IMG/VR virus record: IMGVR_UViG_2703718809_000014
DNA length: 23,522 nucleotides
Reading direction: 5' to 3' (one strand)
DNA from: a virus
Lineage: Duplodnaviria > Heunggongvirae > Uroviricota > Caudoviricetes
The notes below the pieces were generated by a model that saw nothing but the letters and a program-made list of their open reading frames with translations, made no database searches and had not been told where the DNA came from. This document shows, piece by piece, positions 1,536 through 12,655 of this stretch. The position numbers and the translations under genes were made by a program. Every line of letters begins with the position of its first letter. Position 1 is the first letter of the stretch.

Positions 1536-1823
1536 ATGAGCGAATCAGAGCTTGGGGGGTTCATTCAGGTAGCACCATATCCACTTGAAGCGGTGCCATA
1601 TCAACTATTCGCCAAGATGATCGGCCGCAAGGAATCCACAGTCAGAACCATGATTGACGCAGCAAAGCTACCGACAATTGACTTTGTGAAACCAGGTTCA
1701 GTAAAGACGCGTGCATCAGAAAACTGGGTATATCTGCCAGCATTTAACGAAGGCATGCGCAAAGCGTTTTTTGAGCAACCGAAAGAACGCCGCGACGCAT
1801 GGTTGTTGTGGCTGGGACTTTAG
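1536..1823 (+). CDS. cox: Cox-like excisionase / switch regulator
   Basis: 95 aa; YQLFAKMIGRKESTVRTMIDAAKLPTIDF...ENWVYLPAFNEGMRKAF...RRDAWLLWLGL parallels P2 Cox (YQEFAKLIGKSTGAVRRMIDKGKLPVID...EYWVYLPAWNNGL...IRDGWLMWLGL as recalled). Confidence 0.8.
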   Translation: MSESELGGFIQVAPYPLEAVPYQLFAKMIGRKESTVRTMIDAAKLPTIDFVKPGSVKTRASENWVYLPAFNEGMRKAFFEQPKERRDAWLLWLGL

Positions 1824-1829
1824 TCATAA

Positions 1830-2036
1830 ATGACCAGCCATATCATCAGCGCCATTCTGACCCTTGTTTTTATTGAGATAGGCGTAATAGAGATCTATTT
1901 GTTTCGCAAGTTAACGGGACATGAAGAACGCTTTATTGAACTCAGCATTGAATATATCGCCGCTTATACCAAAGGACTTTTCCCGGCAGCTATTGGGGCG
2001 ATGTTTATAGCGTTTGTTATCTGGTTTATCGGGTGA
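1830..2036 (+). CDS. Small hydrophobic protein (two predicted TM segments)
   Basis: 68-aa ORF directly after cox; strongly hydrophobic N- and C-terminal stretches; weak RBS. Confidence 0.4.
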   Translation: MTSHIISAILTLVFIEIGVIEIYLFRKLTGHEERFIELSIEYIAAYTKGLFPAAIGAMFIAFVIWFIG

Positions 2037-2179
2037 GAAACCTGACAACCCACAACTACTGCAATGAGGGTAATTATGTGTGGCATGGACAAATTGGACC
2101 TTATGTTAATTGTAATACTATCAATTAACTTCGGTTACCTCTTAAGCGGCGCAATTCTCATGTGCGGAGGCAAACGAAA

Positions 2180-2287
2180 ATGAACCAGCAGTCCGCAAAA
2201 CGTGAAAACAATGCGATGCGATTTAATCGCAAATATTTTGAGTTCGGCCTCTATGCCGGAATAATTAAATCTGTACAGAGTCTTTAA
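2180..2287 (+). CDS. Short ORF (35 aa), hypothetical
   Basis: ATG at 2180 preceded by GGAGG with about 9-nt spacing; translation MNQQSAKRENNAMRFNRKYFEFGLYAGIIKSVQSL; below the ORF-track size cutoff. Confidence 0.25.
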   Translation: MNQQSAKRENNAMRFNRKYFEFGLYAGIIKSVQSL

Positions 2288-2288
2288 C

Positions 2289-2630
2289 ATGAAACAGCAA
2301 CGTAATTCACGCTTTCGCAATGGTGCAGAACGCCACGCTAACCGTTTTGCTACCAGTGCATCACGCAGCAACATCCGCTACAGCCTGAGTGATACACACG
2401 CAACGCCGGATGGCTACCCAGTAAAACAAATCGGCGAGCACGCCTGGCTGATTGAGAAAGCTGGAATCGTGATCCACAAATGCCCACGCAATCCGTTTAC
2501 CGGAAACCGCATTTTTGCATTGAGCTGTGGCGACAATCAGTTCGGGCAGGATTTCACATTATACGAAGCACTTCGCACGGTTGATCGTCTGCTTCGCGGG
2601 CAAAGTTTTATTAAACAGGCTGATTTATAA
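2289..2630 (+). CDS. Hypothetical early protein
   Basis: 113-aa ORF in the rightward early operon; no recognisable motifs; weak RBS. Confidence 0.45.
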   Translation: MKQQRNSRFRNGAERHANRFATSASRSNIRYSLSDTHATPDGYPVKQIGEHAWLIEKAGIVIHKCPRNPFTGNRIFALSCGDNQFGQDFTLYEALRTVDRLLRGQSFIKQADL

Positions 2631-2640
2631 CGGGTGCTTT

Positions 2641-2928
2641 ATGACCAAAGACCATGCACAAGGTGTATTTATCCGTTTTATTGATTTTCGCGGTGAACTG
2701 TTATTACGTGCATCCGCTATTGACGGAGTGACTCCGGCGGGTAAAAACGGAGCCGACGAAGCCACTTACGTCTATCTGAACGGCACGCGACTGCTTGTGG
2801 AACTTCCGTACCAGACCGTACGAGAAATCATTAGCGAAGCTGAAAAGGCACGCCAGGTTAATGGCGATGAACCCTATATCGAAATTATTTGTATGGATTC
2901 AGAAGCTGAAATACAGAAAGCAGATTAA
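2641..2928 (+). CDS. Hypothetical early protein
   Basis: Internal ATG at 2641 of ORF 2527-2928 preferred, to avoid overlap with the upstream ORF; 95 aa. Confidence 0.5.
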   Translation: MTKDHAQGVFIRFIDFRGELLLRASAIDGVTPAGKNGADEATYVYLNGTRLLVELPYQTVREIISEAEKARQVNGDEPYIEIICMDSEAEIQKAD

Positions 2929-2939
2929 AGGGTGTTGCA

Positions 2940-3182
2940 ATGGACAAAGAATATAAAACACTCATCAACAAAGCACTTGAGCGTTTTTATTTTCGCTTAA
3001 GTGCATCAGGCGTTCATGCTGAACGTGCAGCCCGTGACTCATTGACCAGGGCAATCCGGAGTCTGTATGACGTGGCTTTTTACGCTGATGATCTGGATGC
3101 ACTTAACGAACTTTCCGAGCTGATCTGTGCCGCAGAATGCGGAGAACATATTGAACCGTATAAGCTGGGGAATATCGCATGA
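2940..3182 (+). CDS. Hypothetical early protein
   Basis: 80-aa ORF; stop overlaps the next small ORF start (ATGA). Confidence 0.5.
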   Translation: MDKEYKTLINKALERFYFRLSASGVHAERAARDSLTRAIRSLYDVAFYADDLDALNELSELICAAECGEHIEPYKLGNIA

Positions 3183-3292
3183 GTATATTTATCTCATGGC
3201 TTGTTCTGATTATTTCGGTGGCCTGCGCCATTGGGATTATGCGAATTATTAATTCAGTGAAAAAGATCGAGCGTTTTTTCTCTGATGAATAA
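3179..3292 (+). CDS. Small membrane peptide (37 aa)
   Basis: ATG at 3179 overlaps the preceding stop; translation MSIFISWLVLIISVACAIGIMRIINSVKKIERFFSDE, one hydrophobic helix then a basic tail. Confidence 0.35.
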   Translation: MSIFISWLVLIISVACAIGIMRIINSVKKIERFFSDE

Positions 3293-3385
3293 CGATACAA
3301 ATAAAACATCAAATTAAATAAGAAAACGTGAAAACCATCCGTATTAACGGAGGTATTCGCACACGCAAATAACGGAGATACAAAA

Positions 3386-3796
3386 ATGCACGCAAAAGAA
3401 GAAGGTATCATCAGAGCACTGAAAGAAATTTCAAAGATGGAAAGCGAAGTAGCGAAAAAAGCCGTGGCCAATGCTCACATGGACGTCGCAACCCACACAA
3501 TGATAGTCGCAAAAGTCACGGCAGAAGCTGCCAAAATCATCGAAGAACAGGGTGTGGAACTTGCGCTTCTCAAAACTAAACCAGTCACCGGACTGGATTT
3601 ATCTGACACCGGACGCCTTATTTACACTATTGGCTCGGAGCCACAGCGATACACCATTATCGCCGGATTACAGAACAAATACCTGATCACTCCTCACCCC
3701 ATAAGGGAATCAGCGCTTCTGACAAATCTCCGCCTGATAGAGCGCTCTCAAGTTGCATTCATTGATGACGCCCGACACACCGTATTTAACGCATAG
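3386..3796 (+). CDS. Hypothetical early protein
   Basis: 136-aa ORF with GGAG-type RBS (aacGGAGatacaaaaATG). Confidence 0.6.
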   Translation: MHAKEEGIIRALKEISKMESEVAKKAVANAHMDVATHTMIVAKVTAEAAKIIEEQGVELALLKTKPVTGLDLSDTGRLIYTIGSEPQRYTIIAGLQNKYLITPHPIRESALLTNLRLIERSQVAFIDDARHTVFNA

Positions 3797-4582: not shown

Positions 4583-4705
4583 GAAACCAGAACATGCACA
4601 CACAAAAAAACCGCTTGCCATGCCGCAATCGGTCAGGTTACATTTCCGCTGCACCTCATAAAACGGGTGCCGGGATTCTCAACCCGATACAGAGCAAAGC
4701 GCATA

Positions 4706-4726
4706 ACCGCGCCAGCGGTTTTTTTG
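4706..4726 (+). terminator. Terminator-like hairpin (ACCGC-GCCA-GCGGT plus T7 run)
   Basis: Short GC stem, 4-nt loop, then TTTTTTT, read directly from the sequence in the non-coding stretch. Confidence 0.4.
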
Positions 4727-4904
4727 TGCGTACTGTATTGCCACGTCTTTTTCGCGTCAGAATTATGGCGGGGCGTACGGGGCCGACTTCGGTCGGGCCG
4801 GATTCTTTGCTCTCCGGTGTTGAGAACCCTGTACGTCTCGCCACCCCGAGATTCTCAACTCTGGATGGTGAGCTATTTCTATCACCGAGCAAAGAGGCCA
4901 CACC

Positions 4905-5135
4905 ATGGCAAACCGCAAACAACAGCGCGCATACGCTGCGCGTCGTCACATCCAGACTGAAATCAACCGTAGACTTTTCCGCGCATCACGCGTCGCGCAA
5001 ATCATGCACATCAATATGCTGCATGAGCGCAGCCACGCGCTATCGAACATCTATTCCGCCTCTGTTTTCAGCTATCTGGCGGATGATCTGCGCGAGCTGC
5101 AACAACTCTTCCAGCAGCAAAACAAACTCCATTAA
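4905..5135 (+). CDS. Hypothetical early protein
   Basis: 76-aa ORF with AGAGG upstream of the ATG; basic N-terminus. Confidence 0.45.
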   Translation: MANRKQQRAYAARRHIQTEINRRLFRASRVAQIMHINMLHERSHALSNIYSASVFSYLADDLRELQQLFQQQNKLH

Positions 5136-5207: not shown

Positions 5208-5597
5208 ATGATTGACGCTCATGACTTCACAAGATGGGTGCGCACACAGGACACCCGTCTGGCTCCCGTTCTTCAGGGATTATTTGATCTCTACATCCGT
5301 GGTCGTGACAACAGAGCACGCACCACAAAACCGGAAAATGCAGACACCCTTTATTTCACAGTAGACGACTGCTACCGCGTGGACTTCACACCACACGGGC
5401 TGGCGTTGCATTGCCTGACACCACACGGAGAATCACTGCTGGCGTATTACGACTCCCCGGCCTCCGTATTTGCGGCAATGCTGGCGCATCGCACTGCTGG
5501 CGGGTGTGCCTCGCTGAGTGAATACACCGCTGAATTTAACCGCCTTTCTGCCCTCTTCTCGCAGGAGTGGCAGCGCGTGACGGGATACCAGCCATGA
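5208..5597 (+). CDS. Hypothetical protein immediately upstream of gpA
   Basis: 129-aa ORF; its stop overlaps the gpA start (ATGA). Confidence 0.6.
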   Translation: MIDAHDFTRWVRTQDTRLAPVLQGLFDLYIRGRDNRARTTKPENADTLYFTVDDCYRVDFTPHGLALHCLTPHGESLLAYYDSPASVFAAMLAHRTAGGCASLSEYTAEFNRLSALFSQEWQRVTGYQP

Positions 5598-8434
5598 GTG
5601 AGTTTGCATGGAGCTGGAATGAACCACGGCCAGCCATTGATCCGGCCAGATTTACGGAGCACAGGCAGGAAACTGAAACCGACCTACAACGCGCCATCCG
5701 TTACTACCTTGAGGCAGACAAAAAGGCTCTGGAAGAACAGGAAGCGAAGGAGGAAGCCTTTTTCGCACAATCCACCGTGGGTAAAAAACTCATGGCATCC
5801 CTTGAGGAAGCCGGACAGCGTGAAAAGCTGGCACAAAGCATCATCAGCAAGCGTCAGGCAACAGAACAAGACCCGGTGGCCCGTGCTTTTGCCACACTGA
5901 AGGTGCTTCCCGTTTATCTGCGTGAACCTCTGAGCCGCCACCTCTCTTTCCTGCGCAAAAAACAGGAAGCCGATCGCCAGAAAGGCAAAAAGAGCTGGCA
6001 GGCTGAACGCTACGCGCGCGGAACCCTGCGCAAAATATTCGAACGCCTGGACCGCACCGATCACCGCTGGCTGACACCGGGTTATCGCTCCCTTGCCGGA
6101 CGCGAACGCCTGGACGATTTGCTTTACCTGCCGCAGCTCAACAAACACCAGATACAGACGCTGGCCACCATGACGGCGGCGATGTTCAGCAGCACCTTCG
6201 AAAAACTCTGCGATGGCTTTGGTGCGACTGATGGCGAACTGACCATGGATGTAACGCTGAAGGCGTATCAGATGCTGGCCCGCATGGCGTTACACCTGCA
6301 CGCCATGCCTCCACATTATGACGCACTGACAACAGACAAAGACCGGAGGAACGAACCGGACACGGAGCTGCTGCCGGGCGCAATCCTTCGCCTGACCTGT
6401 GCGGAATGGTGGAAACGCAAACTGTGGCTGTTACGTTGCGAGTGGAGAGAAGAACAACTCCGCGCCGCCTGTCTGGTTTCCAGAAAAACATCACCCTATC
6501 TGAGCCAGGACGCGTTAAGCGAGTTTCGCGCACAGCGCGAGAAAACACGCGATTTCCTGAAAAGTTTCATGCTGGAAAACGAAGACGGGTTCACGATTGA
6601 TCTCGAGACAGTGTATTACGCGGGAGTAAGTAACCCGGTTCACCGTAAGGCAGAAATGATGGCCACCATGAAGGGGCTGGAACTTCTGGCCGAAGCCCGT
6701 GGCGACAAAGCGGTGTTTCTGACTGTCACCTGCCCGTCAAAATACCACGCCACAACAGAGAACGGTCATCCGAATCCCAAATGGAACGGGGCCACCATGC
6801 GCGACTCCAGCGATTACCTGGTTAACACGTTTTTTGCGGCGGTCCGCAAGAAACTGAACCGCGACGGCCTGCGCTGGTATGGCATCCGCACGGTGGAGCC
6901 TCACCATGACGGCACCGTGCACTGGCATATGATGGTCTTTGCTCATCCGGAAGAAATCGACACCATTGTGTCCCACACCCGCGATATTGCCATTCAGGAA
7001 GACCGCCACGAGCTGGGCAATGATATTACTCCGCGCTTTAAGGTGGAGTATGTCGACGGCTCAAAAGGCACGCCAACCAGCTACATCGCCACCTACATCG
7101 GAAAGAACCTGGACAGCCGCGCCGTGGATGGCATCGACCCGAAAACGGGCAAGCCACGCGTTGACCACGAAACCGGAAAATCAATGGCCGAGAGCGTGGA
7201 ACGCGCCATCGGCTGGGCACGCCTTCACCGGGTCCGCCAGTTCCAGTTCTTTGGCATCCCCTCCCGTCAGGTATGGCGTGAACTCCGCCGCCTTGCCAGC
7301 CAGATGGCACGCAACCCGGAAGGCCCGCAACGGCTGAAGGATGATGCAATGGATGCGGTACTCGCTGCCGCTGATGCCGGGTGTTTTGCCACCTACATTG
7401 AGAAACAGGGCGGCGTACTTGTTCCACGCAAAGACTACCTGATTCGCACCGCCTACGACCTCGCAGATGAGCTGAACGATTACGGCGAACAGAGCGTACA
7501 GATTTACGGGATTTGGTCACCACTCATCGGGGAATCCTCCCGTGTGTGCACGCACCCGGATAACTGGAAGCTGGTAAGACGTAAACCGGAAGCGGAAGAC
7601 AGCACCCGCGAAAATGGTTTTGACCTTCAGGGCGGCCCTGCCGCCCCTTGGACTCGTGGCAATAACTGTCCCCGTGTACAGGAAACGGACAACAACGGGA
7701 CAGAACAGCCGGAAGAACGGCCAGCACCGTGGCCGCAGCTTCCTGACGGCGTTGATGTGGATGAATGGATGCGCTCACTGAAACGGCACGAACGCCGGGC
7801 GCTGATGCGTTCGCTGCGTGACAAACAGGCAAAAAACAGCAGTGATGAAATGCAGAGCTGGACACAGAGCCGCAAACAGCAGCGGCCTTTACCTGATAAC
7901 CACGAATTACTCGCTAAAGAATGGCGGGAGTCTGCCGAATCTCTCGGCCTGCATATCGGTGAACAGCAGATGCAGCACCTGTTACGGGGCGGCAGCCTGT
8001 ACGTTGACGGCAGCATCATTGCACCGCAGGGGTTTGAAATTGTACGCAAACCGGATACCCGCCCGGACAGCCGAATCACGCAGCTCTGGCAGCGCCTGAG
8101 CCGTAATCACGGCGTAAGCAGCACGGAGATCCGCCATAACCCGGTCGCCAGCTATCTGGAACAGCTGGGGGCATCAGACCCCGAAGCCGCCGCACGCCTG
8201 GCATCCACACTTCAGCAGGACCAGAACACCATGAAAACACCCGTTACCGTGCTTTCTGACATGCTGCGCGCCATCCGTGACGCAGAGCACGCACAGAGAA
8301 TCAGTGAAACCACTGAACGCGCCCGCCGCAAAGCAGATCTGCTGCGGGGTGGCCTGACCAGTGGAAACAAAAAACAGACAGAAACGGGATTCACAAATCC
8401 CGTAAATGAGCAAAAAACGCGCCGCGATATATGA
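5594..8434 (+). CDS. A: Rolling-circle replication initiator endonuclease (P2 gpA-like)
   Basis: 946 aa from ATG at 5594. Contains HUH-type motif TVHWHMMVFAHPEEID and paired catalytic tyrosines in TSYIATYIGKN (Y-x3-Y), both characteristic of P2 gpA-type Rep proteins. Confidence 0.9.
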   Translation: MSEFAWSWNEPRPAIDPARFTEHRQETETDLQRAIRYYLEADKKALEEQEAKEEAFFAQSTVGKKLMASLEEAGQREKLAQSIISKRQATEQDPVARAFATLKVLPVYLREPLSRHLSFLRKKQEADRQKGKKSWQAERYARGTLRKIFERLDRTDHRWLTPGYRSLAGRERLDDLLYLPQLNKHQIQTLATMTAAMFSSTFEKLCDGFGATDGELTMDVTLKAYQMLARMALHLHAMPPHYDALTTDKDRRNEPDTELLPGAILRLTCAEWWKRKLWLLRCEWREEQLRAACLVSRKTSPYLSQDALSEFRAQREKTRDFLKSFMLENEDGFTIDLETVYYAGVSNPVHRKAEMMATMKGLELLAEARGDKAVFLTVTCPSKYHATTENGHPNPKWNGATMRDSSDYLVNTFFAAVRKKLNRDGLRWYGIRTVEPHHDGTVHWHMMVFAHPEEIDTIVSHTRDIAIQEDRHELGNDITPRFKVEYVDGSKGTPTSYIATYIGKNLDSRAVDGIDPKTGKPRVDHETGKSMAESVERAIGWARLHRVRQFQFFGIPSRQVWRELRRLASQMARNPEGPQRLKDDAMDAVLAAADAGCFATYIEKQGGVLVPRKDYLIRTAYDLADELNDYGEQSVQIYGIWSPLIGESSRVCTHPDNWKLVRRKPEAEDSTRENGFDLQGGPAAPWTRGNNCPRVQETDNNGTEQPEERPAPWPQLPDGVDVDEWMRSLKRHERRALMRSLRDKQAKNSSDEMQSWTQSRKQQRPLPDNHELLAKEWRESAESLGLHIGEQQMQHLLRGGSLYVDGSIIAPQGFEIVRKPDTRPDSRITQLWQRLSRNHGVSSTEIRHNPVASYLEQLGASDPEAAARLASTLQQDQNTMKTPVTVLSDMLRAIRDAEHAQRISETTERARRKADLLRGGLTSGNKKQTETGFTNPVNEQKTRRDI

Positions 8435-8476
8435 AGCGCGCATAAAACAGGCAAAAACGGGATTTCAGAATCCCGT
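8384..8476. repeat. Twin 20-bp palindromes ACGGGATT-N4-AATCCCGT (8384-8403 and 8457-8476) within a roughly 35-bp direct repeat
   Basis: Read directly: ACGGGATTCACAAATCCCGT and ACGGGATTTCAGAATCCCGT, each with perfect 8-bp inverted arms; the first lies inside the gpA 3' end, the second between gpA and the parM-like gene. Confidence 0.7.
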
Positions 8477-8510
8477 AAACGATTAATTAATCAACATAAG
8501 GAAAAGCGAC

Positions 8511-9470
8511 ATGAAAATTTGTATCGACGACGGCTCCACCAACATCAAGCTGGCATGGACTGAGAACGGCGAACGCCGCAACGCCATCAGCCCGAACAGC
8601 TTCAAGTCGGAATGGTCTGCGCCGTTCGGTGGCACGCAGCCCGCGAACTACATGCTTGATGGCGTGCGCTATGGTTTTGATCCGGTCAGCGATCGCTTTG
8701 TCCAGACGACCGACACGCAATACCAGTACAGCGATGTGAATGTCATTGCCATTCATCACGCGCTGGTCAAATCAGGCATCACACCACAGGAAGTGGATGT
8801 GGTTGTCACCCTGCCACTGAGCGAGTATTTCGACACAAACGCACAGCCGGACATGGCCAACATCAACCGCAAAAAAGCGAACGTTATGCGCCCGGTGGAG
8901 TACCAGAACGGCGAAGCATTCACTATCCGTAACGTGCGGGTTATGCCTGAATCCATTCCGGCTGGCTTTAAAGCACTGGCTGACATGAGTCCGTTTGAAT
9001 CCCTGCTGATTGTGGATTTGGGCGGAACCACGCTGGATGTGGCAAAGGTTCAGGGGCAGCTGGCAGGTATCAGCCAGGTGTTTTGCGATCCACACGTAGG
9101 CGTTTCTCTGATGGCCGATGCCGTGCTGTCGGTGATGGCCACCAACGGTATGCGCACCAGTCACCACATCGCCAATACCATTATCGAACATCGCCACGAT
9201 GAAGCCTGGCTGCGCCAGCACATCCACAATGACGCGCATTACGCCAGCCTGATGGCGGTTATTCGTGAAAAGGAAGAAACACTGAAACAACGCGTGATCC
9301 GCGCGCTGGCGGGTTTTTCGGGTTACGGGCGGGTGATGGTTGTCGGTGGCGGGGCGGAGATTGTGGCACCCGCTATCCGCGAAGCCTGCGGAGTTAATGC
9401 GACTTTCATTGCGGACGGGGTGCCACAGTTTGCTCTGGTTAATGGGCTGCACGCAATGGACAAGGAGTAA
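8511..9470 (+). CDS. parM: Actin-like segregation ATPase (ParM/StbA family)
   Basis: 319 aa. N-terminus MKICIDDGSTNIKLAW...ISPNSFK...YQYSDVNVIAIHHAL, then LLIVDLGGTTLDV, FSGYGRVMVVGGGAEI and ALVNGL parallel plasmid R1 ParM (MLVFIDDGSTNIKLQW...SPNSFK...WQYSDVNVVAVHHAL...LLIIDLGGTTLDI...VMVIGGGAEL...LVNGM as recalled). RBS AAGGA upstream. Confidence 0.85.
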   Translation: MKICIDDGSTNIKLAWTENGERRNAISPNSFKSEWSAPFGGTQPANYMLDGVRYGFDPVSDRFVQTTDTQYQYSDVNVIAIHHALVKSGITPQEVDVVVTLPLSEYFDTNAQPDMANINRKKANVMRPVEYQNGEAFTIRNVRVMPESIPAGFKALADMSPFESLLIVDLGGTTLDVAKVQGQLAGISQVFCDPHVGVSLMADAVLSVMATNGMRTSHHIANTIIEHRHDEAWLRQHIHNDAHYASLMAVIREKEETLKQRVIRALAGFSGYGRVMVVGGGAEIVAPAIREACGVNATFIADGVPQFALVNGLHAMDKE

Positions 9471-9474
9471 ATCA

Positions 9475-9786
9475 ATGGCGACATCAACCAGGAGGATAAG
9501 TTTCTATCTGAAGCCCGCCGCCGTCAAGAACGAAGGCGAAGCATGCGCCTGGCTGGACAGCCTTACACCAGAAGCCCGCAAAAGCGGTCAACGCGTGGCT
9601 TTTCTGGCCGGGCTGGCACTTCTGAAAATGAATCCGGCAGAGGCTTACCGACTGGCTGCATGGGCTGACGATGAGGCGTTATCAGTGACACAAACTAGGA
9701 CGGAACGCCCCGTGTCACAGCCAGCACCAACCGCACAGATAACCAGTCAGATGGCCGGAAATATCCGGGCGTTATTTCCTGAATAA
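9475..9786 (+). CDS. parR: ParR-like small DNA-binding adaptor (putative RHH)
   Basis: 103 aa from ATG at 9475 (AAGGAG 8 nt upstream). RRISFYLKP...WLDSLTPEARKSGQRVAFLAGLALL...IRALFPE parallels R1 ParR (RRTIAFKLNP...TLDSIPQGERSRLNRAALTAGLALY...LRSLFPKE as recalled). Sits directly after parM as in parMR operons. Confidence 0.65.
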   Translation: MATSTRRISFYLKPAAVKNEGEACAWLDSLTPEARKSGQRVAFLAGLALLKMNPAEAYRLAAWADDEALSVTQTRTERPVSQPAPTAQITSQMAGNIRALFPE

Positions 9787-9793
9787 CACAACG

Positions 9794-9813
9794 TCAGGGC
9801 GAGTTCGCCCTGA
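9794..9813 (+). terminator. Hairpin/palindrome TCAGGGCGA-GT-TCGCCCTGA between ParR-like gene and first Ea22-like gene
   Basis: Perfect 9-bp inverted arms read from the sequence; no U-tract follows, so terminator function is uncertain (could be a binding site). Confidence 0.3.
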
Positions 9814-9849
9814 TCCCCACCTCAGAACATAAACAAGGAGACCGACTTA

Positions 9850-10497
9850 ATGAGCAAAATTAACTATCAGGCACTGCGTGAGATAGCAAAACTGGCAACA
9901 CAGGGCGAATGGGTCGCATTCATTTCGCCGGGCACTGATACATATGCGGTGCATACGCCGGGGGATGAACGTTGCGGAGACATTATCAAATGGCCAGGCT
10001 TTGACGACCAGAAAAATGCAGAGAACAACGCAGAATTTATCGCAGCTTTCAACCCTGAAGTAGTACAGGCGTTGTTGGATGAACGGGAAGCCCAAAGTAA
10101 ACGCATTGCAGAGCTGGAGACTAATCTGGTGACACTCGCGGCGGAGAATGAGGCGTTGAAGTCGAACCTGATTTACTGGGGCGGCGAAGATTCAGGGGCT
10201 GTCAGAAGTCCGCTTGATTACGCCCGTGCAGCCGGGCTGGAATCTGGAGAGGAGTTTGAGATGCAAGTGGCAGCCAGAATGCCGAACCTGACTTATCGCG
10301 TTGTGTCGAATTCCCGATTCAGAACAACAATAGAACTGGTTGACGGATCATTGCCGGAAACCCCAGCCACCAATGCTTTTCTGGCTGAAGTACGAGCACA
10401 AGGCGTGGAGATGTTTGCTGAGTGCGCATACACACTTGAACATCATGATCACGCAGTAGCTTTTGCCGCCGAACTACGTAAAGGAGATAAACAGTGA
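9850..10497 (+). CDS. Ead/Ea22-like family protein with coiled-coil segment (paralog 1)
   Basis: 215 aa; N-terminus MSKINYQALREIAKLATQGEW matches the conserved Ea22-like N-terminal motif as recalled; predicted coiled coil KRIAELETNLVTLAAENEALKSNL; AAGGAG RBS. Confidence 0.7.
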   Translation: MSKINYQALREIAKLATQGEWVAFISPGTDTYAVHTPGDERCGDIIKWPGFDDQKNAENNAEFIAAFNPEVVQALLDEREAQSKRIAELETNLVTLAAENEALKSNLIYWGGEDSGAVRSPLDYARAAGLESGEEFEMQVAARMPNLTYRVVSNSRFRTTIELVDGSLPETPATNAFLAEVRAQGVEMFAECAYTLEHHDHAVAFAAELRKGDKQ

Positions 10498-11096
10498 ACA
10501 AAATTGACTATCAGGCACTGCGTGAGGCAGCACAAAACTATCAGTCGACGCTGGCGTGGTATGAGGCCATCCCGGATAGCCCATGCTCTGAGGTTGATTG
10601 TGATAGAGTTTTGGCTGCGTTTAAGTGTCAAATTCGTCATCGGGAAATGGATATTATCGCCGATCTGCTGGATGAACTGGACGAAAAACAGCATTACATC
10701 AAACTCCGCGACCAGGAAAACGAGGAAATTGCGATAACGATAGGGAAGCTGCGTATTGAGCTGGAAGAAGCAAAATCAAAACTCAACGAGCAGCGTGAGT
10801 ATTACAAGAGTGTTATCGCCGATGGAAGTAATCGCATTGCAGAACTGGAAGAGATCGCCACTGACTACGCACTGAAATTTCAGAAAGCACAGGATGCACT
10901 AAAGCATGCTGTGTTAATGCGTAACAAATCGCTTTCTTTTGAGAAAGCGGTGCGTCACCCAACCTCAGAGTGTGGCACATTTACAGTGGAGATCCCGAAT
11001 CCAAAGGAGTATTTCATTAACGGCGTATTCCAGCCTTTGCGATACGAACGGGATGTTGAACGAGCCATCATAAAGGCAGGTGGAAAAGTCTCGTGA
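10494..11096 (+). CDS. Ead/Ea22-like family protein with long coiled coil (paralog 2)
   Basis: 200 aa; GTG start at 10494 overlapping the upstream stop (GTGA), AAGGAG 8 nt upstream; N-terminus MNKIDYQALREAA shared with paralog 1; extended heptad-like region LRIELEEAKSKLNEQREYYK...IAELEEIATDYALKFQKAQDALK. Confidence 0.7.
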   Translation: MNKIDYQALREAAQNYQSTLAWYEAIPDSPCSEVDCDRVLAAFKCQIRHREMDIIADLLDELDEKQHYIKLRDQENEEIAITIGKLRIELEEAKSKLNEQREYYKSVIADGSNRIAELEEIATDYALKFQKAQDALKHAVLMRNKSLSFEKAVRHPTSECGTFTVEIPNPKEYFINGVFQPLRYERDVERAIIKAGGKVS

Positions 11097-11436
11097 CAGG
11101 AGACAGAAGAGAAGCCGCTCCACGGCAAACCGGGGCGATAATCACACATCGCCCTGCTGCACAATAGTGCACAAATTTGCACAATTTTTTTGAACGACTT
11201 TTTGCCCTTCCGGCCCCCGTGGCGGCTGGATCCGTCAAGGATCCGTGCGTGCACAAAAAAACGCGTTTTTTCTGCGCGCAGGTGACGGGGGAACAGCCCG
11301 CGTTTCAGGGGGTAAATAGCACTCCCTGAACGATGTCGCAGAGATACAACAGAATGGCTGTATTTCTCACGCTGAGCGTGAAAAAGACGTGAGGGCTTTT
11401 GATTTGATGGGGTGGCAGATAAGGCCGTCAAAATCG

Positions 11437-11456
11437 CACTGAGGCGGCGAAAACAT
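11437..11456. other. Candidate cos (cohesive end) site
   Basis: cactGAGGCGGCGAAAACAt resembles the P2 cohesive-end sequence as I recall it (GGCGAGGCGGGGAAAGCAC); lies about 150 bp beyond the portal gene stop, as in P2. Recollection-based. Confidence 0.3.
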
Positions 11457-11558
11457 GCAGTCAGCGCAGTGGGATTGCGTAAGAGTCTGACCGTCGATGA
11501 TGGCAATAAGCAGGAAAGCGTCGTGAAATTATCTGATTGATACAGGAGCTGGAGAGTC

Positions 11559-11581
11559 GGGGCATAAATTTTTTATGCCCC
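11559..11581. terminator. Perfect 10-bp hairpin GGGGCATAAA-TTT-TTTATGCCCC between convergent cargo and Q transcription units
   Basis: Read directly from the sequence; lies between the plus-strand cargo genes and the minus-strand Q-P operon; no strong U-tract on either side. Confidence 0.45.
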
Positions 11582-11608
11582 GGCGAAGCAGCAGACAAGC
11601 GAAGCGCG

Positions 11609-12655
11609 TCAGGATGTGGGCTGGGTGTCTAACAGTGCGTAAGGGTTAAAGCGGATCACCTCTTCGCCAAGCCAGTCATTGATGTGCTTCATGGCCTCCA
11701 TGACGGGCATCAGCTCGTTAATTGCGTAAACCCGCGCGGCCTTCTCCACATCACCAAACGCACTTTTTTCGCCCGGCATCGCCCCCATCAGTTGCGGCGG
11801 AACGCGGTGCGCAGCCAGCACATCATCACGGGATGCCGCCTTAACATTCATGAACTCATCCTTTGCGGTGATCTGCTGGAACGGCAAAATTTGCACCCCC
11901 TCTTTGCCCCCGTTGGGCGCATGAATGAGCACGTTTTTAAACGCACCACCACCACGCGCACCCTGTAGCGTTTCTTTCAGGGAGTCCATGCTTTCGCGGT
12001 TTACCTGCGCTGCACCGATGTAGATGATGCACCCGGCGTGGGATCCATTGTCGTAATACAGTTTTCTGAACATGTCCGCCGAATGAGACAGGCTGGCCGA
12101 GAGTAATGCGCCAAGATATTCCGGCATGCCGTAAATTTCCTGGTTAATGTCCGGATTCATCAGGTGGCACACTTTGCCAGGGCGAAACTGAAACGCGTCT
12201 TTGCCATCCTGCACATACCACCATGATTCAAGATCGCTTCCGCGTCGCATGTATTTCGCCAGGGCGTGCCGTAATTTAAGTGGTTCGCCGAGCATATTGC
12301 TTCGAAGCTCAAGGAATGCGTTACCGAACACAAACCAGTCCAGCGCCAGCGCCGAGAAATCCTGCCGGGAAAGCAGCGGGTGCGGGATGTAGCAACCGAG
12401 TAATACATTGCGCTTAAAGTAAAGCGCAGACTGATGCCAGGACGTTTGCCGGGCAGCTCTTGCCAGACCGTACCAGTCTACCGGGGTTTCATACCACCGC
12501 CCGTTATCAGCACAGTACATATTGTCCAGCAGGTCATGCCCGGTCAGGCGATAAGGACCATCAAATGTGAATGCACTGAGCGATGATTCTTTCCTGAGCG
12601 CATCAGCAAGATCAATGCGTGAACTCATGCGCACTTTTTTATTTTTTCTGCTCAT
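11609..12655 (-). CDS. Q: Portal protein (P2 gpQ-like)
   Basis: 348 aa, leftward, immediately downstream of and start/stop-overlapping the terminase large subunit gene, as P2 Q. Confidence 0.85.
   Translation of the reverse strand: MSRKNKKVRMSSRIDLADALRKESSLSAFTFDGPYRLTGHDLLDNMYCADNGRWYETPVDWYGLARAARQTSWHQSALYFKRNVLLGCYIPHPLLSRQDFSALALDWFVFGNAFLELRSNMLGEPLKLRHALAKYMRRGSDLESWWYVQDGKDAFQFRPGKVCHLMNPDINQEIYGMPEYLGALLSASLSHSADMFRKLYYDNGSHAGCIIYIGAAQVNRESMDSLKETLQGARGGGAFKNVLIHAPNGGKEGVQILPFQQITAKDEFMNVKAASRDDVLAAHRVPPQLMGAMPGEKSAFGDVEKAARVYAINELMPVMEAMKHINDWLGEEVIRFNPYALLDTQPTS

Follow-up and report, generated by a model that had tools for sequence, protein, structure and literature searches.

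Two tandem Ead/Ea22-like genes in the gpA–gpQ slot of a P88-like prophage

The variable slot and its borders

The window, by which we mean the whole stretch of 23,522 nucleotides that was analysed, carries genes in the order integrase, repressor, Cox, gpA, ParM and StbB. It belongs to a P88-like prophage (Xuanwuvirus, P2-family; Peduoviridae) of E. coli, with 94–98% nucleotide identity over the ParM–StbB segment. Two open reading frames, ORF1 and ORF2, occupy the gpA–gpQ variable slot, which follows the ParM/StbB partition module and precedes a conserved terminator-like hairpin and the portal gene. The slot and its borders contain the following features:

9794–9813, no strand assigned: perfect palindrome with an 8-bp stem in the interval between StbB and ORF1, TCAGGGCG AGTT CGCCCTGA
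9835–9840, plus strand: Shine-Dalgarno-like AAGGAG, 9 nt 5′ of the ORF1 ATG
9839–11157, plus strand: variable cargo slot of P88-like prophages, here filled by ORF1 and ORF2, delimited by the ends of homology blocks in the compared IMG/VR P88-like loci
9850–10497, plus strand: ORF1, 215 amino acids, ATG start, Ead/Ea22-like by Pfam PF13935 and by PHROG 368 over its full length
10494–11096, plus strand: ORF2, 200 amino acids, GTG start, Ead/Ea22-like by Pfam PF13935
11167–11192, plus strand: hairpin GTGCACAAATTTGCAC resembling a terminator, with a T-run behind it, where the conserved right flank begins

When P88-like loci from IMG/VR are compared with the window, blocks of homology stop on the left at 9787, 9814 (in 11 loci), 9838 or 9881 and restart on the right at 11126–11159, in 53 loci at 11157–11159; the slot edges given by this comparison are at about 9838 and 11158. 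The palindrome at 9794–9813 is not followed by a T-run on the plus strand. A P2 cos sequence was not found in the window, so the putative cos region at 11158–11608 is placed by its conservation and position. The slot coincides with the published gpA–gpQ hotspot of P2-like phages (Rousset 2022, PMC9122126; PMC13586616), in that it lies between the replication endonuclease and portal genes and varies among close relatives. Its cargo is highly diverse among P88-like relatives, and in sister loci includes genes with strong PADLOC matches to IetA, AbiLi, RmrA and PDC-M04A.

A preliminary description of this DNA held that Ea22-like genes do not normally occur in P2-like phages, which proved incorrect. 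Of 566 complete E. coli genomes that match a query spanning the StbB-to-Ea22 junction, 223 (about 40%) cover at least 80% of its length, and an Ea22-like open reading frame is present in 24 of 75 IMG/VR P88-like loci. RefSeq annotation contains cassettes of ParM, partition and one or two ead/Ea22 genes beside the replication endonuclease and the portal, and Ead_Ea22 had already been listed as hotspot cargo (Rousset 2022, Table S5; PMC9122126). The StbB-to-Ea22 junction of the window is also found in loci L001, L077 and L082. Two Ea22-like reading frames in tandem are the minority state, seen in one of the 75 IMG/VR loci and in a few RefSeq genomes. P22-like SE21, PAS61 and further P88-like prophages have similar tandem pairs with a 4-nt overlap and at least one Ea22-like member.

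Two further arrangements were considered and rejected. An obligate two-gene system is contradicted by ORF2-type genes that stand alone or behind other partners, namely a 174-aa protein ending in KGGNQ or a ClpX-type zinc-finger gene, and by the single doubled locus among the 75. A functional link to ParM is contradicted by the constancy of ParM/StbB as a flank, the Ea22 genes being one of dozens of alternative cargoes.

The higher AT content of the two genes relative to their flanks, pointed out in the preliminary description, is real but modest. The GC content is 0.508 for ORF1 and 0.466 for ORF2, compared with 0.535–0.570 for gpA, ParM, StbB, portal and terminase, while GC at third codon positions is about 0.48 for both genes and 0.54–0.66 for the flanking genes (0.61–0.66 without the short StbB gene). 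The overall GC of the two genes equals that of lambdoid ea genes (0.44–0.53). The region 1600–3400 of the window is lower still in GC. Matches to lambdoid phages come as blocks of 86–87% nucleotide identity, one of them running across the ORF1/ORF2 junction. These blocks, and the exact fit of the pair into the variable slot of P88-like prophages, support the separate acquisition that had been proposed from composition. At the level of sequence similarity, it is clear that the modules of ORF1 and ORF2 circulate in the ea / exo-xis regions of lambdoid phages.

Architecture of ORF1 and ORF2

Both proteins were assigned to the Ea22-like family in the preliminary description, and Pfam PF13935 (Ead_Ea22, gathering threshold 27 bits) confirms this, with 97.1 bits over profile positions 1–98 of 139 for ORF1 and 78.2 bits over positions 2–139 of 139 for ORF2. 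The family is widespread, and homologues labelled "ead/Ea22-like" number in the thousands. Each has the family pattern of a leader M-x-x-I-(D/N)-x-Q-A-L-R-E, an LLDE joint and a heptad-periodic helix. Their internal features are:

10045–10170, plus strand: heptad-periodic helix of ORF1 (residues 66–107), which holds the LLDE and RIAELE joints (repeats D3 and D2), from the heptad test and the AlphaFold2 model
10357–10494, plus strand: carboxy-terminal module of ORF1 (residues 170–215), ETPATNAFLAEVRAQGVEMF...AAELRKGDKQ, common to P22-like "EaE" proteins
10656–10865, plus strand: coiled coil of ORF2 (residues 55–124), ten heptads in a single register, from the heptad test and the AlphaFold2 model
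10977–11093, plus strand: small carboxy-terminal domain of ORF2 (residues 162–200), FTVEIPNPKEYFINGVFQPLRYERDVERAIIKAGGKVS, from the AlphaFold2 model and slot relatives

ORF1, for which 4862 homologues were found, starts with the leader and an Ead-type N-domain, continues with a short coiled coil and a variable insert, and closes with an EaE/Oad2-type carboxy-terminal module that ends in LRKGDKQ and the stop codon. Residues 1–107 are 76% identical to a protein of phage PAS61 and residues 170–215 are 91% identical to the SE21 "EaE" protein; from this carboxy-terminal module onwards, across the junction and into ORF2, nucleotide identity is 86%. The AlphaFold2 model of ORF1, made from a 33-sequence alignment, contains a helix at residues 69–105 and is of low confidence (pLDDT 52), so the domain boundaries of ORF1 rest on the alignments.

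ORF2 consists of the leader, an alternative N-subdomain, a long coiled coil of the lambda-Ea22 type and a small carboxy-terminal domain typical of the P88 slot. It is 40% identical to lambda Ea22 (E 1e-31) and 45% identical to P22 EaD. The segment between its LLDE joint (10666–10681) and its RIAELE joint (10826–10849) is of the lambda-Ea22 type, and the central coiled coil is about 73% identical to lambda Ea22 residues 43–101 by a hand count on the alignment. In the AlphaFold2 monomer model, a single long helix spans residues 34–145, with block-mean pLDDT values of 94–98 across approximately residues 61–130, and is followed by a carboxy-terminal domain made up of a short beta-element and a helix (pLDDT about 70–83). 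This last domain is 65% identical to a Xuanwuvirus P884B11 reading frame, and genes of its type usually close the P88 slots that carry Ea22 (22 IMG/VR loci). A Foldseek comparison of the ORF2 model with the PDB gave no match at E ≤ 0.001, and neither ORF matched a PDB sequence at E values up to 1, save for one irrelevant match.

The coiled-coil bodies claimed earlier are supported by the predicted helices and by heptad periodicity, with p about 0.003 for residues 55–124 of ORF2 and about 0.02 for residues 66–107 of ORF1 in a crude shuffle-controlled statistic of our own, which is distinct from COILS and MARCOIL.

The shared leader and the gene junction

The two genes begin alike and are joined by a compact overlap:

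9851–9891, plus strand: first copy of the leader repeat (M-S-K-I-N-Y-Q-A-L-R-E-I-A-K), direct repeat family D1
10480–10497, plus strand: putative coupling junction, AAAGGAGA (10480–10487), a 6-nt spacer and GTGA, from sequence and family comparison
10495–10535, plus strand: second copy of the leader repeat (M-N-K-I-D-Y-Q-A-L-R-E-A-A-Q), direct repeat family D1

The near-identical amino-termini noted earlier correspond to ten identities in the first 14 residues and to a 41-nt direct repeat with 88% identity. The exact 18-mer TATCAGGCACTGCGTGAG occurs twice in the window, the first time at 9865–9882, with a chance expectation of 0.02 matches even when three mismatches are allowed. Beyond the leader the proteins had been said to diverge completely. 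This is not the case, as the LLDE and S-x-RIAELE repeats are common to both and the Pfam match covers about 100 or more residues of each. At the nucleotide level the repeats are in register, LLDE at 10073–10088 and 10666–10681 and S-x-RIAELE at 10095–10118 and 10826–10849, the latter with 92% identity.

The start of ORF2 inside the stop of ORF1 is as the preliminary description had it: the GTG overlaps the TGA of ORF1 at 10494–10497. The tandem layout, in which the genes overlap by 4 nt and a Shine-Dalgarno sequence lies within ORF1, looks to be of the coupling type. This Shine-Dalgarno sequence, AAAGGAGA, is encoded by the K-G-D codons of ORF1. The family consensus of the junction is AAAGGAGGCAACCAGTGA, with GTGA or ATGA in 119 of 120 non-identical junctions, and the sequence AAAGGAGGCAACCA-GTG-leader is present in more than 100 IMG/VR contigs. 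Upstream genes end in RKG(G/D)xQ and a stop codon, the AAAGGAG codons forming the ribosome-binding site of the next gene, and the stop overlaps the GTG or ATG of the leader M-x-x-I-(D/N)-Y-Q-A-L-R-E. The junction joins 38 upstream clusters to 27 downstream clusters in 73 combinations. Its identity is 0.66, versus about 0.27 in adjoining DNA; most of these loci were picked by the exact 18-mer, which inflates conservation at positions +15 to +32, not at −25 to 0. By these comparisons, the shared amino-terminus and the GTGA overlap are the standard portable gene junction of the family. A constant leader with variable carboxy-termini, taken earlier for a feature of this pair, is likewise what defines the architecture of the family at large (PMC10834534; our alignments).

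The shared amino-terminus might be a DNA or RNA element only, a linker for recombination and a region of translation initiation that has been homogenised among cassettes. All ten identical leader residues use identical codons in the two copies, the junction is conserved amid otherwise unrelated flanks, homology breaks at 9881–9882, where the leader ends, in 11 loci, and short boundary sequences were proposed earlier for lambdoid phages (Clark 2001, cited in PMC3029335). We nevertheless consider this explanation quite unlikely. Loci chosen without the 18-mer keep the peptide through synonymous changes (CTG/TTA for leucine, CGT/CGC for arginine, GAG/GAA for glutamate), which argues that the peptide itself matters; moreover, the Pfam domain model includes the leader, and AlphaFold2 puts it in a helix. 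Judged from these sequences, leader identity as pure DNA-level homogenisation is only partly tenable. A common interaction partner, suggested in the preliminary description, may exist: the leader also belongs to the gene boundary, yet its peptide is kept.

The combination of Shine-Dalgarno sequence, overlapping stop and start, and leader illustrates neatly what a portable gene boundary looks like and may account for the shuffling of cassettes inside a phage family and from one family to another. From the comparisons above, ORF1 and ORF2 are probably unremarkable representatives of the mosaic Ead/Ea22-like family, built from circulating modules and lodged in a P88-like slot. Their arrangement is an ordinary mosaic that public annotation already records, and does not amount to a novel type of system. 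Pfam, RefSeq annotation and the supplementary tables of published work already cover the family, the way it is assembled from modules, and its occurrence in the hotspot of P2-like phages.

Possible roles and comparison with known systems

ORF1 and ORF2 appear to be the last genes of the early operon, followed by the conserved terminator-like hairpin. This placement is inferred from three observations: a crude consensus scan of 8300–11700 found no sigma-70-like site, the genes lie on the same strand as gpA, and the terminator-like hairpin is located downstream. In P2, the equivalent slot holds old and tin, exclusion genes expressed in the lysogen, which counts against the early-operon reading. 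In the mechanism that we propose, the two genes would be transcribed as the tail of the Cox–gpA early operon and the junction would couple the translation of one cassette to that of the next. Along with the LLDE, RIAELE, ETPATDAFLAEVRAQ and RKGGNQ joints, the junction would also provide short homologies for cassette swaps between phages, including swaps from lambdoid to P2-like phages. The proteins would self-associate via their coiled coils, like the lambda Ea22 tetramer, and their exchangeable carboxy-terminal modules would bind proteins of the host or of rival elements. A role in host modulation or counter-defence, rather than in defence expressed by the lysogen, is the reading we tentatively adopt, although it may well be wrong.

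Among the specific roles, inhibition by ORF1, and perhaps by ORF2, of an OLD-family protein (ABC ATPase and TOPRIM) or of another immune protein of the host or of a competing prophage is possible but doubtful. It is suggested by analogy with HK446 gp27, Oad2 (OLD anti-defence 2), which directly binds and inhibits the P2 OLD tetramer (10.64898/2026.07.10.737580). The ORF1 family aligns with Oad2 residues 22–175 (hhalign probability 98.7%, E 4e-16; BLASTP E 1e-7), with the similarity concentrated in conserved joint motifs, and the carboxy-terminal module of ORF1 resembles that of an EaE protein whose N-half nearly matches Oad2. Relatives of Oad2 fused to EaD/Ea22 proteins are mentioned in the same preprint, an anti-defence role fits the early-operon position, and the slot in relatives holds AbiL-type ATPase and TOPRIM-like cargo, IetAS and RmrA-like genes. 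However, the variable inserts, the presumed source of specificity, differ between ORF1 and Oad2 (30% overall identity), and ORF2 has no similarity to Oad2. Since an Oad2 homologue at 54% identity is reported not to inhibit OLD (10.64898/2026.07.10.737580), activity is allele-specific and cannot be assumed for ORF1. The recent Oad2 result does supply a specific hypothesis that can be tested on proteins of the ORF1 type, namely activity against OLD or against immunity. A broader version, in which the Ea22/EaE cassettes of the hotspot are early counter-defence genes, ORF1 is an Oad2-like inhibitor, and lambdoid and P2-like phages exchange cassettes at the junction of about 65 nt (Shine-Dalgarno sequence, overlapping stop/start and leader), is improbable on our estimate; if true, the "defence hotspot" would double as a hotspot of counter-defence that follows its own rules for swapping cassettes.

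By analogy with lambda Ea22, the proteins could instead be pro-lysogenic modulators that bias the lysis–lysogeny decision or damp prophage induction via a host partner. The leader of lambda Ea22 and much of its central coiled coil recur in ORF2, and deletion of ea22 in lambda or Stx phage leads to faster induction and a higher phage yield (PMC7093339, PMC10834534). The carboxy-terminal domains, however, differ from that of lambda Ea22 and have no PDB match, the lambda domain is by itself insufficient for the phenotype, and the P2-type switch is different (C/Cox, here also with C4 RNA and a derepression protein), so we regard this role as unlikely. Anti-phage defence or superinfection exclusion by the prophage, as expected of gpA–gpQ cargo, seems to us more unlikely still. 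[quoted passage not shown] Yet PADLOC-DB v2 and NCBIfam gave no real match for either ORF, the PADLOC matches being coiled-coil noise (E at least 4e-4), and Pfam revealed no enzymatic or effector domain. A promoter of their own is likewise missing from the scan of 8300–11700, and the native setting of the family is the lambdoid early-left operon, expressed in infection. A considerable fraction of P88-like prophages have lambdoid early-region cassettes in the "defence hotspot", which is relevant wherever hotspot cargo is taken to be defensive.

Compared with lambda Ea22, a tetramer with a variable carboxy-terminal domain (PMC10834534), and with P22 EaD, ORF2 has the same leader, LLDE joint and long central coiled coil. 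It also has the three-part plan of lambda Ea22, a short N-region, a coiled coil (predicted helix 34–145 of 200 residues) and a variable carboxy-terminal domain; ORF1 has this plan only in part, because its coil is about 40 residues long. The N-subdomain and carboxy-terminal domain of ORF2 differ from those of lambda Ea22, the alignment losing similarity after residue 119, and neither ORF matches the mixed alpha–beta dimeric domain of lambda Ea22 solved by NMR. Where lambda ea22 lies in the exo-xis / ea early-left region, ORF1 and ORF2 follow ParM/StbB in a P2-family prophage. With P22-type EaE and Oad2, ORF1 shares most of its body (approximately residues 54–215 align with the Oad2 segment given above) and the LAAEN...KSN, ETPATDAFLAEVRAQ and QLRKGGNQ-stop motifs, while its Ead-type N-domain and central insert are different; it corresponds to the EaD/Ea22–EaE fusion type mentioned in the Oad2 preprint (bioRxiv 10.64898/2026.07.10.737580).

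The junction resembles the conserved boundary sequences described for the mosaic modules of lambdoid phages (Clark et al. 2001 on HK620, and Susskind and Botstein 1978, cited in PMC3029335), in that about 65 nt are conserved between unrelated upstream and downstream genes in many combinations. Relative to the boundary sequences as described there, the junction also encodes a Shine-Dalgarno sequence, an overlapping stop and start and a conserved peptide, and it occurs outside lambdoid phages. As cargo of the gpA–gpQ hotspot, ORF1 and ORF2 share with other occupants the position beside the portal gene and a very high turnover in close relatives. They differ from old, tin, retrons, IetAS and AbiL in fitting no defence model and in looking co-transcribed with the early operon.

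Layout and composition of the gene pair

The two genes under study, ORF1 and ORF2, are arranged in tandem and contain two in-register DNA repeats:

9850–10497, + strand: ORF1, ATG start, 215 aa
10494–11096, + strand: ORF2, GTG start, 200 aa
10073–10088 and 10666–10681, + strand: LLDE repeat (ORF1/ORF2)
10095–10118 and 10826–10849, + strand: S-x-RIAELE repeat (ORF1/ORF2), 92%

As the preliminary description had it, both ORFs exist and the TGA stop codon of ORF1 is overlapped by the GTG start codon of ORF2, forming GTGA; AAAGGAGA is located inside ORF1, 6 nt upstream of this overlap. Pairwise BLASTP gives a single alignment, of residues 1–14, with 10 of the 14 identical, and the DNA encoding this leader is a 41-nt direct repeat of 88% identity. 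An exact 18-mer within it has two copies in the window, against a chance expectation of 0.02 matches with up to 3 mismatches allowed. The near-identity of the N-termini is thus borne out; the complete divergence proposed beyond them is not, as the LLDE and S-x-RIAELE repeats give both genes a common scaffold of short joints. The reported AT-richness is genuine yet modest: ORF1 and ORF2 have GC contents of 0.508 and 0.466, compared to 0.535–0.570 for neighbouring genes, and GC3 is about 0.48 for both, compared to 0.54–0.66 (0.61–0.66 without the short StbB gene).

Both proteins belong to the Ea22-like family, as proposed, scoring 97.1 (ORF1) and 78.2 bits (ORF2) with Pfam PF13935 (Ead_Ea22; threshold 27). 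Their PHROGs are of unknown function, and the named proteins among their relatives in a large protein database (4862 for ORF1, 2295 for ORF2) are nearly all called "ead/Ea22-like family protein". ORF2 is 45% identical to P22 EaD and 40% to lambda Ea22 (E 1e-31); in the central helix about 73% of residues match those of lambda Ea22, while the C-terminal part shows no similarity. The proposed coiled-coil bodies are supported by a shuffle-controlled heptad statistic, with ten uninterrupted heptads in ORF2 (residues 55–124, p about 0.003) and about six in ORF1 (residues 66–107, p about 0.02). AlphaFold2 predicts for ORF2 a single long helix (residues 34–145), with block-mean pLDDT above 90 over about 61–130, followed by a small C-terminal domain. 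This plan agrees with the published picture of lambda Ea22, in which a short N-terminal segment leads into a central coiled coil, followed by a C-terminal domain that varies (PMC10834534, PMC7093339).

The cargo slot of the prophage

A P2-family prophage makes up the window. Its integrase and repressor genes are on the minus strand; rightward follow Cox, DUF4761, DUF4754, a MarR-like gene, isrK and C4 RNAs, the derepression protein, gpA, ParM, StbB, ORF1 and ORF2, and then the minus-strand portal and terminase genes:

4651–4725, + strand: isrK (Rfam, 62.8 bits, above gathering score)
4761–4848, + strand: C4 antisense RNA (Rfam, 78.5 bits, above gathering score)
4905–5135: "Derepression" family ORF, directly downstream of isrK/C4
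5567–8434: gpA ORF, as listed 955 aa with GTG start, overlapping the preceding 129-aa ORF (5208–5597)
within 8511–9786, + strand: ParM, complete, 319 aa, StbA_N and ParM C-terminal domains
within 8511–9786, + strand: Plasmid_stab_B partner, 103 aa, between gpA and the cargo slot
9794–9813: palindrome with a perfect 8-bp stem, in the 63-nt StbB–ORF1 spacer
11167–11192: terminator-like hairpin with T-run, where conservation of the right flank begins

The isrK, C4 and Derepression elements look like a P1/P7-style C4/antirepressor module in a P2-family early operon. Relatives of gpA are called at 940–946 aa, so its true start probably lies downstream of 5567. About a quarter of P2-like phages have such a ParM module, which might permit plasmid-like maintenance (Rousset 2022, PMC9122126). 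The lowest GC content of the window (0.41–0.45) is found at 1600–3400, where DUF4761, DUF4754 and unannotated small early ORFs lie downstream of cox; this may be a further accessory or mosaic region.

The ParM–StbB DNA is 94–98% identical to that of Escherichia phage P88 and other Xuanwuvirus genomes, while between StbB and the portal gene P88, Shae_phiSM and phage 520873 carry different genes. This interval is between 1.1 and 4.2 kb long, in dozens of arrangements, in the 75 IMG/VR relatives whose slot is complete. Homology with the window stops at 9787, 9814, 9838 or 9881 and restarts at 11126–11159, so that ORF1 and ORF2 are exactly the cargo of the slot, which is the published gpA–gpQ hotspot (PMC9122126, PMC13586616). 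The palindrome at 9794–9813, not followed by a T-run on the + strand, marks one class of slot boundary, homology stopping at 9814 in 11 loci; it may serve in RNA processing, in attenuation or as a recombination site. To the right, 11158–11608 is presumed to be the cos region; a P2 cos sequence was not found in the window. Further hairpin/T-run elements are present near 11252–11275 and 11553–11582. An antisense ORF (10955–11506, minus strand, 183 aa, TTG start) recurs in 37 sister loci, probably for no other reason than that it falls within conserved non-coding sequence ahead of the portal gene.

Of 5426 complete E. coli genomes, 566 were matched by a probe that runs from the 3' end of StbB through the spacer into the start of ORF1; about 10% of sampled rows were leader-only matches, and coverage reached at least 80% in 223. 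RefSeq labels there read ParM, partition protein and one or two ead/Ea22-like. At least one Ea22-like ORF is present in 24 of the 75 IMG/VR loci and two in only one. Contrary to what had been supposed, Ea22-like genes are therefore not foreign to P2-like phages, and homologues are found in P1-like, D6-like and further temperate phages as well. The exact ORF1 sequence was found on 18 contigs; all four places examined have a P88-like context and an ORF starting at the position of ORF2; the contig extends further in two of them, and there this ORF has its full 200 aa. In sister locus L213 (GCA_023885525.1), an identical ORF1 and a 200-aa Ead_Ea22 ORF are followed, before the portal gene, by an extra 174-aa gene (7834–8358) with no Pfam match, indicating that the slot kept changing after gaining the pair.

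Mosaic build and the portable junction

Family members are built of interchangeable blocks parted by short conserved joints (alignments A1 and A2): the leader, LLDE, RIAELE, LAAEN, ETPATDAFLAEVRAQ and a C-terminal LRKGGNQ* or GIRIKGE*. A protein of phage PAS61 is 76% identical to residues 1–107 of ORF1, "EaE" of the P22-like phage SE21 is 91% identical to its last 46 residues, and some database proteins resemble it in the C-terminal half alone, their N-termini being unrelated. Separate nucleotide blocks of the pair are 86–87% identical to lambdoid phages. One of these (query 509–994) crosses the ORF1/ORF2 junction, its SE21 counterpart being an EaE/EaA pair likewise with a 4-nt overlap. Lambdoid ea genes have GC contents of 0.44–0.53, the range of ORF1 and ORF2. 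Together with the nucleotide blocks, this makes acquisition from the lambdoid pool well supported, in line with the separate acquisition proposed before.

Scanning IMG/VR with the 18-mer gathered junction contexts from at least 120 contigs. In most of those listed, the gene start reads ...CTTCGCAAAGGAGGCAACCA-GTG-AGCAAGATTGACTATCAGGCACTGCGTGAG; the upstream gene ends in RKGGNQ*, its AAAGGAGG codons serve as Shine-Dalgarno sequence and its TGA is overlapped by the GTG. When 120 non-identical contexts are clustered by sequence, the 38 upstream and 27 downstream groups occur in 73 combinations, and 119 of the junctions have GTGA or ATGA. For pairs with unrelated flanks, mean identity is 66% over the junction (−25 to +42), a figure partly raised by the 18-mer selection except in the −25 to 0 segment, compared to about 27% in adjacent DNA. 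In loci chosen by StbB, the leader peptide is kept despite synonymous CTG/TTA, CGT/CGC and GAG/GAA changes, so the peptide itself seems to be constrained too.

Expression, possible function and comparison with known systems

No sigma-70-like site was found in 8300–11700 (2.4 expected in shuffles). Together with the location of both ORFs on the gpA strand and the terminator-like hairpin at 11167–11192, this suggests that they form the tail of the Cox–gpA early operon.

The same slot in sister P88-like prophages is occupied by a range of genes, some of them recognised or candidate defence systems:

32 loci: ClpX-type zinc-finger gene
L194, L195, L202: IetA and S8 peptidase
L185: AbiLi/AbiLii-like
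L168 and relatives: RmrA-like protein, 381 aa
L144: PDC-M04A
L169, minus strand: two adjacent ORFs resembling a Doc/Phd pair, judged by eye
sister loci: membrane proteins

A defence role would fit such company, but defence models gave no match to ORF1 or ORF2. Alternatively, they may have a role like that of lambda Ea22, which is tetrameric and has a pro-lysogenic phenotype (PMC10834534, PMC7093339). Tentatively, and at somewhat less than even odds, we regard both as early-expressed, self-associating coiled-coil proteins, the swappable C-terminal modules of which would bind proteins of the host or of rival elements; the preliminary observation is thereby borne out as a whole, its interpretation in part. 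A July 2026 preprint describes HK446 gp27 (Oad2, OLD anti-defence 2), which binds and inhibits the P2 OLD defence, is akin to P22 EaE and is at times fused to EaD/Ea22 proteins; a homologue with 54% identity is inactive (10.64898/2026.07.10.737580). Residues 22–175 of Oad2 can be aligned with the ORF1 family at 98.7% probability; overall identity is only 30% and concentrated in the joints. No similarity of ORF2 to Oad2 was found.

Such an arrangement is ordinary and already catalogued: the family and the hotspot are both known, and what is new is the combination of alleles. The Oad2 lead and the description of the portable junction are useful additions. In the sister prophages, several unrelated + strand cargo genes, one acetyltransferase-like, one methyltransferase-like and one for a protein of 174 aa, likewise terminate in KGGNQ*, GNQ* or IKGE*, and thus have a lambdoid-type gene boundary in common. 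The Ea22 junction itself is similar to the "short conserved boundary sequences" that have been put forward for mosaicism in lambdoid phages (Clark 2001, as cited in PMC3029335).
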